From: Candidatus Dormiibacterota bacterium | GTDB lineage: Bacteria > Chloroflexota > Dormibacteria > Aeolococcales > Aeolococcaceae | Assembly (NCBI GenBank): GCA_036521195.1 | Contig: DATDID010000040.1 | Location: 65,979 to 129,978 of the forward strand | DNA: 64,000 nucleotides | Direction: 5' to 3' | In this document: positions 11,071 to 16,586 of the stretch, in pieces | How the letters are laid out: each line of letters starts with the position of its first letter | How positions within the stretch are numbered: the stretch's first letter is position 1 | The notes under the pieces: model-generated | Told to the model about the DNA's origin: nothing | Databases searched by the model: none | The model's input: only the letters and a program-made list of their open reading frames with translations | Program-made: the position numbers and the translations under genes

Positions 11071-14000
11071 GTGGCTGACCCCGTTTCGCTGACCCTCCCG
11101 GCGATGGGTGAGTCCGTGACCGAAGGGATCGTGTCCCGATGGCTCAAGGCCGTCGGCGACAGCGTCAGCGAGGGCGAGGCTCTCGTCGAGGTGACCACCG
11201 ACAAGGTCGACGTCGAGGTGCCGGCTCCGGCGAGCGGGGAGCTCACCGAGATCGTCGCCGCCGAGGGTGCCACCGTCGCGGTCGGTGCCGTCCTCGGGCG
11301 GATCGTTCCCGGGGCAGTCGCGCAAGCCCAAGTGCCGCAGGCACCACCCGCACCGCCTGGGGTGAACGCTGGCGGCAACGGCTCGTCGCCGAGCGCGCCT
11401 GCCGCCCCGGCGGAAGCCCCTCCGGTGATGCAGCCGGAAACCCCCGCCGTTGCGGAGGCCGCAACATCTCCGGACGTCGCCGCGCCCGTGAGTGCTTCGG
11501 AAGACGCGCAGCTGATCGCCCTGCTCGACGAACCGGAACCTCCGGTCGCGCCGCTCACCGCCGATGGCGCCGATGTCGCTCTCACCCCGCTGGCCCGGCG
11601 TGCCGCCGCACAGAACGGGGTTGACATTCGCACGGTCCACGGCTCCGGCCCCGGGGGCGTCGTCACCAAGAGCGACGTGCTCAACGCGAAGAACGCCGGT
11701 GACAGCCGTCCCGACGCGACTGTGCGCGTCAGCGAAGGAGAGACCGCCCAACCGATCCGCGGGCCGGCTGCGGCCCTCGTCGATTACATGGAGCGCAGCC
11801 GAGACATTCCGACAGCCACGTCGTTCCGGACCATCTCGGTGGCGGTCCTCGACGCTCGGAGGCGTCAGATCAACAGCGCACTGGCCGCAGCCGGCAAACC
11901 GATCAAGGTGTCGTTCACGCATCTCATCGGCTACGCGGTCGCTCGCGCCGCCGATGCGAGCCCGTCAATGACCACGCATTTCGCTCGCAGCGACGACGGC
12001 AAGCCGGCGCGCGTTCCCGGGTCCGCGCACCTGGGACTGGCCGTCGACACCGTCCGCAAGGACGGCACGCGTGGGCTGGTCGTTCCGGTCATCCGTGACG
12101 CCGCGGCGAAACCGTTCACCGAGTTCCGCGAACAGTACGAACGCCTGATCGAGCGTGCGCGCACCAACACGCTCAGCGCCGATGAGCTGCAGGGCGCCAC
12201 GCTGACGCTGACGAACCCCGGCGGCCTCGGCACGGTGGCGTCGGTTCCACGGTTGATGCCGGGCCAGGGAACGATCATCGCCGTCGGAGCGATCGGCTAT
12301 CCCGTCGAGTGGCGCTCCACATCAGAGGCGAGCATCAGGGCCGCCGGCGTCAGCAAGGTGATGACGATGACGAGCACCTATGACCACCGGGTCATCCAGG
12401 GCGCGGAGTCCGGTGCGTTCCTCGGAAGCATCGAGTCACTCCTTGACGGTGCCGGCGGGTTCTACGAGAGCGTTGCAGCCAGTCTTGGCATCAACCTGCC
12501 CGTGCTCGAAACGCCACAAGGAGCACCGGCAGCGCCGCCGCCGGCAGTCGCAGCGCCCGAGACCGGATCCTCCACACCCGACCGCGTCCTGCTCGGCGCG
12601 ATGCAGGCCGCCACATCGCTCGTCAAGGCACACCGCACGCACGGTCATCTCGGGGCGCATCTCGACCCCCTCGGTTCGCCGCCGATCGGCGATCCGGCGA
12701 TGGACCCCGCAACGTACGGTCTGACGCCCGAGCTGATGGAGCGGATCCCCGCCGACCTGCTGCGCGTCTATGTCCCGGGCCGCAATCTCGCCGAAGTGCT
12801 CCCGAATCTGCGCAGCACGTACTGCAGCACCATCGCGTTCGAGATCGAGCACCTCTCCAGTCACGAGCAGCGCGTGTGGCTGCGCGAGCACATCGAATCC
12901 GGGGCCTACAAGCCGAAGTTGACCACTGAGGAACGCCTTCGGCTGCTCGAGCGCCTCACCAAGGTGGACGCGATGGAGCGCTATCAGCGCGCCACGTTCC
13001 TCGGACAGAAGACATTCTCCATCGAGGGGCTCGACGCGCTCGTCCCGATGCTCGAGGCACTGCTGACGAACGTCGCGGCAGACGGCATCGGCGAGGTGGT
13101 GATGGGCATGTCGCATCGCGGCCGTCTCGCCGTCGTGGCGCACGTCGCGAACCACTCGTACGAGTCGATCCTCAACGCGTTCGAGCTCGCATCAGCACGG
13201 CGGGATATCGCCAGCTTCGCGTCGACGGGCGACGTGAAATATCACATCGGCGCCACCGGGACGTATCACACGGAAACCGGCAAAGTGATCCTCGTCCGCC
13301 TGCTGCCGAACCCGAGCCACCTCGAGGCGATCGACCCGGTGGTGGAAGGATGGAGCCGCGCCGCGCAGACCCAGCGCCGCGCGACGACACTGCATCTGGA
13401 CCCGATGGCCGCCTTGCCGGTGCTCATCCACGGCGATGCGGCGTTCGCGGGACAGGGCGTCGTACAGGAGGTGATGAACCTGCAGTCGCTGCCCGGATAC
13501 ACCACGGGCGGGACGGTGCATTTCATCGCCGACAACCAGGTGGGCTTCACGACCGATCCGCAGGAAGGCCGCTCGACACGCTACGCATCGGACCTCGCCA
13601 AGGGGTTCGACATCCCCATCGTCCACGTCAACGCAGACGACGTCGAGGCGTGCCTCGCGGCGATCACCTTCGCGTACGACTATCGCCGCGCGTACCGGCG
13701 CGACGTCATGGTCCACCTCATCGGCTACCGGCGCTTCGGACACAACGAGGCGGACGAGCCGGCGTACACGCAGCCGCTCATGTACGTGAAGATCCGCCAG
13801 CACCCGACCGTGCGCGAATTGTTCGCGGCGCAGTTGACCGCCGAGGGATTGATCCGGCCCGAGGAAGTCGATGCGATGGCGAAAGCGGCATACAGCCGCG
13901 TCGCCGACGCGCACAAACGCGTGAAGGAGCATCTCGCTGCGGAGCTGGACGACCTGACCCATGAACAGGTCGTCGAGGAACCCGACGATCCGATGCTGCG

Positions 14001-15222: not shown

Positions 15223-16586
15223 CCAATCGCGTCGTGGTCCTCGGCGGTGGTCCCGCCGGCGATGTCGCTGCGCTGCGCGCGGCGCAACTCGGTGTCGAGG
15301 TCACGCTCATCGAGCGCGCCGAACTCGGGGGCACCTGCCTCAACTGGGGCTGCATTCCCACCAAGTCATTGCTCGCGGGAGCCGACCTGCTGCGCAAGAT
15401 CCGCTGCGCTGCCGACTTCGGCATCAAGGTGCCCGAGCCTGAGATCGACTTCCCGCGCATGATGGAGCGCAAGGAAGAGATCGTCGTGAAGATGCGCAAC
15501 GGCGTCGAGGCGGCGTGCAAGCGCCGCAACGTCACGGTCGTGCGCGCTCAGGGCGTCATCGACGGCGACGCCGTCGTGGCGGGCGACGTGCGCTATGCCT
15601 TCGATCACCTCGTCGTGTGCGTCGGCACCGAGCCGTCGGGTCTGCCGGGCATCGACATGGAGCACCCGCTCGTGGTGACGTCCAACGGTATCCTCCGACT
15701 CGAGCGCGTGCCGAAGCGCCTGCTCGTCATCGGTGGCGGAGTCGTCGGCTGTGAGTTCGCGAGCCTGTTCGCAGCGCTGGGCTCGCAGGTGACGGTTGTC
15801 GAAGTGCTGCCGCAGGTGCTCGCGGGCGTCGATCCGCGGGTGGTGATGCAGTGGCGCCGGATCGTCGAGAAGCAAGGCATTACGTTTCTCGCCGGCCGCC
15901 GCGTCGAGTCGGTCGACTACGGCGCCGCGACGGTCACGGCCCACCTCGACGACTCGACAGCGCTCGAGGCGGACCTCCTGCTTGTCTCGGTCGGGCGTCG
16001 CGCGCAGACCAGAGGGATCGGGCTCGAGGACGCCGGCGTCATCGTCGACGAGCGCGATCACATCGTGGTCGACCCGTTCCTGCGTACCGCGAACCCCCGT
16101 ATCTGGTCGGCGGGCGACTGCATCGGAGGGCTGCAACTCGCGCATCTGGGCAGTGCCGAAGGTGGTCGCGCTGTCGAGAACGCCCTTGGTCACGACGTCA
16201 TGCCGATGGACCGCACCGTGGTGCCGTCGTGCATCTACACGCATCCCGAAATCGCCATGGTTGGCATGAACCCATCGACTGCGAAGGACGCGGGCATCGA
16301 GGTGAAGCTCGGCCAGGCACGATACCTCGGCAACGGGAAAGCGCTCGGCGAGGGCGAGCCCGACGGGCTCGCGCAACTCTACGCGGACGCGGCCACCGAT
16401 CGCCTCATCGGCGCAACCGTCATGGGGGTCCATGCCGTCGAGATCATCCACGAGGTGGGCGTCGCCATCAGCGACGGGCTGTCGATGGATGACCTGGGCT
16501 CGATCATCCACGCGCATCCCACAGTCAGCGAGTTGATGATGGACGCCGCCGAACAGGGCGAGAGCGTCGCACCGTATCTGAGCTGA
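15219..16586 (+). CDS. lpdA: dihydrolipoyl dehydrogenase (E3)
   Basis: GGGPAG, GGTCLNWGCIPTK redox disulfide, C-terminal HAHPTVSE; GTG overlaps the sucA TGA. Confidence 0.93.
   Translation: MTNRVVVLGGGPAGDVAALRAAQLGVEVTLIERAELGGTCLNWGCIPTKSLLAGADLLRKIRCAADFGIKVPEPEIDFPRMMERKEEIVVKMRNGVEAACKRRNVTVVRAQGVIDGDAVVAGDVRYAFDHLVVCVGTEPSGLPGIDMEHPLVVTSNGILRLERVPKRLLVIGGGVVGCEFASLFAALGSQVTVVEVLPQVLAGVDPRVVMQWRRIVEKQGITFLAGRRVESVDYGAATVTAHLDDSTALEADLLLVSVGRRAQTRGIGLEDAGVIVDERDHIVVDPFLRTANPRIWSAGDCIGGLQLAHLGSAEGGRAVENALGHDVMPMDRTVVPSCIYTHPEIAMVGMNPSTAKDAGIEVKLGQARYLGNGKALGEGEPDGLAQLYADAATDRLIGATVMGVHAVEIIHEVGVAISDGLSMDDLGSIIHAHPTVSELMMDAAEQGESVAPYLS

Follow-up and report, generated by a model that had tools for sequence, protein, structure and literature searches.

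A 64,000-nucleotide stretch of contig DATDID010000040.1 from an uncultured soil bacterium of the Candidatus Dormiibacterota (the window, to whose positions all coordinates refer) carries the gene for a full-fusion 2-oxoglutarate dehydrogenase (ODH). In this protein a lipoyl domain, a peripheral-subunit (E3)-binding domain (PSBD), an E2o succinyltransferase core and E1o, the thiamine diphosphate (ThDP)-dependent 2-oxoglutarate dehydrogenase/decarboxylase, follow one another in a single chain. The open reading frame (ORF) occupies positions 11071-15222 of the forward strand (+), starts with GTG and runs through 1383 codons (1383 aa) with no internal stop. Next comes lpdA (15219-16586, +; a gene call), encoding a dihydrolipoyl dehydrogenase (E3) of 455 aa, whose GTG start overlaps the TGA stop of the fusion gene by 4 nt (GTGA). 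The lpdA product scores 451.6 bits against TIGR01350 (cut-off 408.8), with Pyr_redox_2 and Pyr_redox_dim both present. No separate sucB-like partner lies beside the fusion gene. A preliminary description, made from the letters of the DNA, had reported an uninterrupted lipoyl-PSBD-E2-E1 ORF with an overlapping lpdA, and the ORF itself, the Pfam and NCBIfam matches and the motifs TTDKVD and YDHRVIQGA bear this out.

The modules are all encoded on the plus strand. The lipoyl domain (residues 7-78, 11089-11304; Pfam PF00364 Biotin_lipoyl, E 1e-19) contains the predicted lipoyl-lysine, Lys45 (codon 11203-11205), within TTDKVD, and this lysine is invariant in the aligned full fusions (46/46). An Ala/Pro-rich linker, the putative flexible part of a swinging arm (residues 79-169, 11305-11577), leads to the PSBD (residues 170-204, 11578-11682; PF02817 E3_binding, E 8e-13). 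In the alignment used for an AlphaFold2 (AF2) model of residues 1-520, the linkers of the relatives are hypervariable in length and sequence and the flanking modules are conserved. The model has the lipoyl and catalytic domains at a predicted local confidence score (pLDDT) of ~90 each and a helical PSBD at ~85, with residues 84-166 of the linker disordered (pLDDT <50). The OdhA/Kgd-type E2o succinyltransferase catalytic domain (residues 223-459, 11737-12447; PF00198 2-oxoacid_dh, E 9e-45) includes the DHRVIQG motif (12382-12402) as part of YDHRVIQGA (residues 437-445); across 76 fused proteins, exchanges of Val and Ile are the sole variation in YDHR(V/I)IQGA. The E1o part (residues 514-1362, 12610-15156; TIGR00239; PDB matches 2JGD and 2XTA) comprises E1_dh (654-955), Transket_pyr (1020-1213) and OxoGdeHyase_C (1219-1360), and its ThDP motif HGDAAF..GQG...NQ is conserved among the same 76 proteins. 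At residue 821 (13531-13533), the first Asn of the E1o motif NNQ(V/I)GFTT is Asp in the window protein; Asp occupies this position in 10 of 47 aligned full fusions, and Asn in the remaining fused proteins and in SucA.

The six Pfam families thus follow one another in a single ORF, the lipoyl domain being present once. The match to NCBIfam NF008907, the Kgd/OdhA equivalog (PRK12270), covers residues 167-1362 and reaches 1419.7 bits (cut-off 878), and that to the E1o family TIGR00239 reaches 958 bits (cut-off 770). By its sequence, the protein is a genuine single-chain ODH of the OdhA/Kgd lineage with an arm of its own. Could it act on another 2-oxoacid, such as 2-oxoadipate, or serve mainly as a 2-oxoglutarate decarboxylase, and not be the ODH of the cell? 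Kgd was first described as a decarboxylase, and DHTKD1 is an E1o paralogue that uses 2-oxoadipate; E1o paralogues of the DHTKD1 type are among the PDB matches of the window protein. Such a role is nevertheless very improbable: the scores exceed the curated equivalog cut-offs for both E1o and Kgd/OdhA, the host genome encodes exactly one E1o, the fusion protein, and lipoyl arm, E2 core and E3 together fit only the full oxidative reaction.

Might the long ORF itself be a product of assembly, for example of an indel that joined a lipoyl/PSBD gene to an OdhA gene? The genome is a long-read metagenome-assembled genome (MAG), and frameshifts occur in the linker region of two related loci (L014 and L092). 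A second assembly (L001, an ENA contig of 1.17 Mb) can be compared with window positions 1070-25222, at 99.88% DNA identity over 24 kb; the two differ by 26 mismatches and 3 indels in these 24 kb, the indels being a point for such an error, yet none of the differences falls inside the fusion gene, and L001 encodes the identical 1383-aa protein. Among 80 related loci taken from species-representative genomes, 77, from three phyla, encode all four modules (lipoyl, PSBD, E2, E1o) without a break in the frame. The other three are broken by a single frameshift in the Ala/Pro linker region (L014, L092) or by a contig end (one). The same six Pfam families also recur in nearly all of the best 120 protein clusters from a 5.8-billion-protein collection. 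Because two assemblies give the identical protein and 77/80 loci keep it in one frame, the fusion is evidently real, and an assembly artefact is so improbable as to be hardly credible.

Elsewhere in L001, the BipA/TypA gene and a gene of the PALP family are each called as two pieces; the BipA/TypA gene is intact in the window (7773-9635, -).

What is known of its closest structural models? Kgd and OdhA have neither a lipoyl domain nor a PSBD and use lipoyl domains borrowed from the pyruvate dehydrogenase (PDH) E2; published work supports the preliminary description on this point. OdhA and AceE compete for lipoyl groups in Corynebacterium glutamicum. The solved OdhA/KGD structure is a homohexamer of 0.8 MDa that contains three E1o dimers and two E2o trimers; its first ~100 residues are mobile and presumably contact further components of the complex (PMC10415282). 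The 1:1 E1:E2 assembly, which the same description had called necessarily unusual, is not new: it is that of this solved hexamer (PMC10415282). C. glutamicum OdhA (CgOdhA) and Mycobacterium smegmatis KGD (MsKGD; PDB 8P5R-8P5X, 2XT6 for the two) share with the window protein an E2o core fused to E1o, the DHR(V/I)IQG motif and the ThDP site. The alignment with MsKGD (8P5R, E 3e-267) and CgOdhA (8P5T) begins at the first E2-core strand, continues through to the C-terminus, and takes in the family-specific Gln of DHR(V/I)IQG and the insertion that precedes it. Over the shared part, identity to sampled actinobacterial OdhA is ~42%.

The difference lies at the N-terminus. OdhA/KGD start with the helical segment PF16078 (2-oxogl_dehyd_N), an N-terminal docking segment, and rely on the lipoyl domains of AceF/DlaT in a mixed PDH/ODH complex; the window protein has a lipoyl domain and a PSBD in that place. 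A Pfam scan gave no PF16078 match in the window protein or in three further full fusions, whereas four lipoyl-less relatives in the same scan all matched. Because the lipoyl domain and the PSBD are present and PF16078 is absent, the window protein is a relative of strict OdhA/Kgd and not a member.

The architecture has been described in silico before. In a Pfam-architecture search of finished genomes, Bruch et al. (bioRxiv 10.1101/2020.07.24.212647) came upon an LB-PS-E2-E1 "full fusion" in three Thermoleophilia, in which two lipoyl domains and an E3-binding domain replace the N-terminal segment. They guessed that the full fusion is self-sufficient, an in silico speculation made with no experiments, and noted that a Phe-containing C-terminal insertion (PCI) in other E2s goes with lipoyl-less OdhA (Bruch et al., bioRxiv 10.1101/2020.07.24.212647). 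The preliminary description, which proposed a two-protein ODH independent of the PDH core, had arrived at an idea that was thus already in print. The window protein and the Thermoleophilia proteins have the same domain order in one chain, no PF16078 and other E2s without the PCI, and they fall in the same clade in E1o and E2-core trees. They differ in the number of lipoyl domains (one in the window protein, two in Thermoleophilia), in their hosts (Candidatus Dormibacterota and Actinomycetota) and in the lpd gene, which overlaps the stop codon in the window and is missing from the Thermoleophilia loci. What is new is thus the host phylum, the single lipoyl domain and the putatively private E3.

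With the canonical SucA/SucB/Lpd system (E. coli; PDB 2JGD, 1SCZ), the two-gene locus shares the three activities and the swinging-arm logic of a lipoyl domain and PSBD on the E2 part. Canonical ODH is built on a 24-mer E2 core with peripheral E1, unlike the window enzyme, in which E1 and E2 are one polypeptide, E1o has no N-terminal E2-docking motif and the E2 core belongs to a very divergent OdhA-type clade. The window E1o is 45-51% identical to Chloroflexota SucA. The nearest relative of the full-fusion clade in both kinds of tree, at ~52% identity, is a lipoyl-less OdhA-type fusion from a Chloroflexota family (f12), which differs in that it carries the PF16078 N-motif but lacks a PSBD as well as a lipoyl domain.

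How widely do these forms occur? In the genome collection used, Dormibacteria are a class within the phylum that also holds the canonical Chloroflexota. In an even sample of 201 genomes of that phylum, 80 encode an E1o: 11 have full fusions (8/9 genomes of the window's family and 3/4 of a second Dormibacteria family), 12, all of f12, have lipoyl-less OdhA-type proteins, and the 57 other E1o are ordinary SucA of ~940-1030 aa. Each of these 80 genomes has one type of E1o, with no second type beside a fused one in any of the 201. Among 201 sampled Actinomycetota genomes there are ~10 full fusions and ~80 OdhA (architecture checked for 28), and among 121 sampled Eremiobacterota genomes up to 53 have a fused protein, mostly in frames of 1300-1530 aa whose lipoyl domains were not checked singly. 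Dormibacteria proteins mostly have a single lipoyl domain and those of the Solirubrobacterales group mostly have two, while either number occurs in Eremiobacterota. In two Dormibacteria families, and in a large part of Eremiobacterota, the full fusion is the standard form of ODH.

The f12 proteins (1187-1284 aa) have the classical OdhA arrangement, in which E2 core and E1o follow the PF16078 N-motif and a lipoyl domain is missing, and occur outside Actinomycetota, in genomes of ~2-2.8 Mb (loci L158-L166; G015, G028, G052, G064, G076, G112, G148, G166, G202). Three proteins that might have passed for lipoyl-less Dormibacteria forms were rejected: P0074 lacks a start residue, opens abruptly on the PSBD and seems to be a truncated call, the start of P0085 lies inside the linker, and P0039 is the frameshifted gene of L014. 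A full fusion nested within the Eremiobacterota clade comes from a MAG labelled "uncultured Alphaproteobacteria" (L088, CAWBES010000013.1), probably a mislabelled bin or a contaminating contig.

The relationships among these proteins were analyzed in maximum-likelihood trees of E1o (~850 columns, rooted on Chloroflexota SucA) and of the E2 catalytic domain (240 columns, with canonical E2s as the root). Part of the tree sampling carried no taxon labels, and the evolutionary reading rests only on splits common to all analyses. The 42-row E1o tree (LG+C20+F+G4) places SucA first, then (actinobacterial OdhA, (f12 lipoyl-less, full fusions)), with all splits at >=99/95, and a quick 88-row E1o tree agrees with this topology. 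The full-fusion clade, Solirubrobacterales proteins included, has support of 99/95 (E1o tree) and 94/89 (E2-core tree). Its sister grouping with f12 receives 100/99 in the E1o tree, and 82/92 (45 rows) and 97/93 (61 rows) in E2-core trees. Within the full-fusion clade of the E1o trees, Eremiobacterota are sister to Dormibacteria, and the Actinomycetota proteins make up a basal, paraphyletic set. The fused E2 cores come together without exception in one clade (100/100) on a very long branch (~3 from canonical E2), which argues for a single origin of the fused core.

Sampling was widened with a phmmer scan of 1.84 billion cluster representatives, which added lipoyl-less lineages and global SucA. 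The added lipoyl-less lineages fall outside the (f12, full-fusion) clade in the E2-core tree, and those with intact N-termini all carry the SucA-type N-motif. Two long-branch proteins, P0132 and P0135, stand apart from the full-fusion clade in the wider E1o tree and are back inside it in the E2-core tree.

Is the full fusion, then, an ancestral or a derived state of Kgd? The preliminary description had offered both, and the E1o trees, the E2-core trees and an approximately unbiased (AU) test speak for the second. If the full fusion were ancestral, actinobacterial Kgd/OdhA would have arisen by losing both the lipoyl domain and the PSBD. No origin is simpler to imagine than a fusion of sucB with sucA, the single clade of fused E2 cores makes a single fusion event likely, and Thermoleophilia, which have full fusions, branch deep within Actinomycetota. 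However, the main full-fusion group is one clade, sister to f12, with OdhA and the other lipoyl-less lineages outside; constraining all the lipoyl-less proteins to a single clade lowers the log-likelihood by 19 units (AU test, p 0.023); and the shared SucA-type N-motif would have to be recreated by each independent loss. An ancestral full fusion is unlikely on this evidence. The full fusion is probably derived, because one gain of an arm suffices, where the alternative calls for several losses that each leave the same N-motif. Most likely, the clade arose from a lipoyl-less OdhA-like ancestor in which lipoyl and PSBD modules replaced the N-terminal docking motif. Under either polarity, actinobacterial Kgd does not descend directly from the Dormibacteria enzyme.

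A fuller history can be suggested tentatively, at a little less than an even chance: the swinging arm may have been re-invented secondarily, when an OdhA-like hexamer reliant on the lipoyl domains of another complex regained lipoyl and PSBD modules where its N-terminal docking helix had been. The now autonomous gene may then have spread among unrelated soil phyla (Thermoleophilia-like Actinomycetota, Eremiobacterota, Dormibacteria), replacing SucA/SucB, and Dormibacteria may have recruited a private, translationally coupled E3. If true, the locus would be a minimal ODH of two genes provided by nature, its six tethered arms mounted on a known scaffold of 32 symmetry.

The association with E3 is well conserved in the Dormibacteria clade. 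An lpd gene lies directly downstream of the fusion gene in 24/28 loci of this clade, in two Eremiobacterota loci and in none of the other related loci, and the window lpdA product is only 37% identical to the Lpd of another 2-oxoacid dehydrogenase operon of the same genome, on contig C43. Fusion gene and lpd together make up the conserved unit, a two-gene operon, and the single lipoyl domain and the translationally coupled E3 are features particular to the Dormibacteria clade. A promoter and terminator scan around the operon gave nothing usable. Directly upstream of the fusion gene, an ORF of 181 aa (10500-11045, +) has a signal peptide, a lipobox-like LASCG and a Pro-rich tail, and no Pfam match. 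It was considered as an operon member or regulator and rejected, being lipoprotein-like, without Pfam match and kept only in the closest relatives.

Does the host need to share lipoyl domains between its complexes? The MAG (3.14 Mb in 51 contigs) encodes lipoyl synthase and three E2 catalytic domains. The two E2s besides the fusion belong to operons on contig C43 (lpd-E1alpha-E1beta-E2, with lipA nearby and no LipB next to the E2) and contig C31 (E1alpha-E1beta-E2-ilvE). Because these are two other complete E1alpha-E1beta-E2 operons, one with its own lpd, the ODH need not share lipoyl domains. There is also an AceE-type homodimeric E1p (C26:54041-56686; TIGR00759, 1346 bits).

Taken together, the likely explanation of the locus is a two-gene operon for a self-contained ODH of the OdhA/Kgd lineage, belonging to a derived full-fusion clade that Dormibacteria share with Eremiobacterota and Thermoleophilia-like Actinomycetota. 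By homology to OdhA/KGD, the protein would form a homohexamer of ~0.9 MDa, with three E1o dimers as blades and an E2o trimer on either face. All six chains would have a swinging arm of their own, made of one lipoyl domain, a disordered linker of ~85 residues and the PSBD, in the place of the mobile N-terminal helical segment with which OdhA docks onto the PDH E2. E1o would decarboxylate 2-oxoglutarate and succinylate the tethered lipoyl-Lys45, and the arm would then carry the succinyl group to an E2o site of the same particle, yielding succinyl-CoA. The PSBD would hold the co-translated Lpd dimer, at which the dihydrolipoyl group would be re-oxidized with production of NADH. Such a cycle would require no further E2.

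Alternatively, the enzyme may have its own arm and yet work in a mixed PDH/ODH assembly, either lending its lipoyl domain to AceE or other E1s or, like OdhA, letting its E1o and E2o also draw on the lipoyl domains of another E2. Lipoyl sharing between complexes is possible because the AceE-type E1p has no E2 beside it; moreover, the fused E2 core is closest in the PDB to mycobacterial DlaT/E2p, and the competition between OdhA and AceE in C. glutamicum provides a precedent. On the other hand, the protein lacks PF16078, the segment through which OdhA contacts E2p. The PCI that goes with the mixed complex is missing as well: as judged by eye against the published description, there is no Phe near the C-terminus of the other two E2s (tails ...RFVTAVQKLLEGIDPTGTLV and ...LIETPDEALNDD). 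A coupled, dedicated E3 and a PSBD are what a separate complex would need. We regard the mixed assembly as rather improbable.

Several points weigh against the self-contained, derived enzyme and have to be set beside the evidence for it. We infer the OdhA-type hexamer, the lipoylation, the docking of E3 on the PSBD and the autonomy alike. The window PSBD reads GGVVTKSDV, where most relatives have GG.IRR.DV. The AceE on C26 has no adjoining E2, both ordinary E2s being in E1alpha/E1beta operons, and neither LipB nor LplA was identified in the host genome, which is 88.7% complete. An adjacent lpd is wanting in most Eremiobacterota and Thermoleophilia copies, so that a dedicated E3 is not general to the architecture. 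In L014 (OY970307.1, 3001-3700), the closest complete Dormibacterota chromosome, one extra base before the PSBD, outside a homopolymer, leaves a lipoyl-domain ORF and a PSBD-E2-E1 ORF of 1220 aa (P0039, starting MARMSSSTPLARR); this may reflect an error in sequencing or a genuine split form whose lipoyl carrier is free. As for the trees, the 70-row E1o tree with global SucA is poorly resolved beyond the full-fusion/f12 clade, and the roots of the family trees rest on long outgroup branches. Finally, a literature search found no experimental characterization of a full fusion. The preliminary description had allowed that the architecture might prove widespread and already characterized: widespread it is, across Dormibacteria, Eremiobacterota and Actinomycetota, and no bench work on it was found.

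The kind of enzyme is unchanged and the core idea has already been published, which makes this an incremental finding of moderate interest, useful as a simple system for experiments and as a corrective. Among 2-oxoacid dehydrogenases, OdhA/Kgd is the textbook case that departs from the E2-core rule. An arm-bearing relative that would need only E3 may be the simplest system in which to follow the visits of a lipoyl domain to the E1o and E2o sites on an OdhA hexamer, and would be useful for probing the autonomy idea of Bruch et al. and for building a compact two-gene ODH. E2-E1 fusions are not an actinobacterial peculiarity: they occur in abundant uncultured soil lineages and, in the lipoyl-less OdhA-type form, in a family of Chloroflexota.

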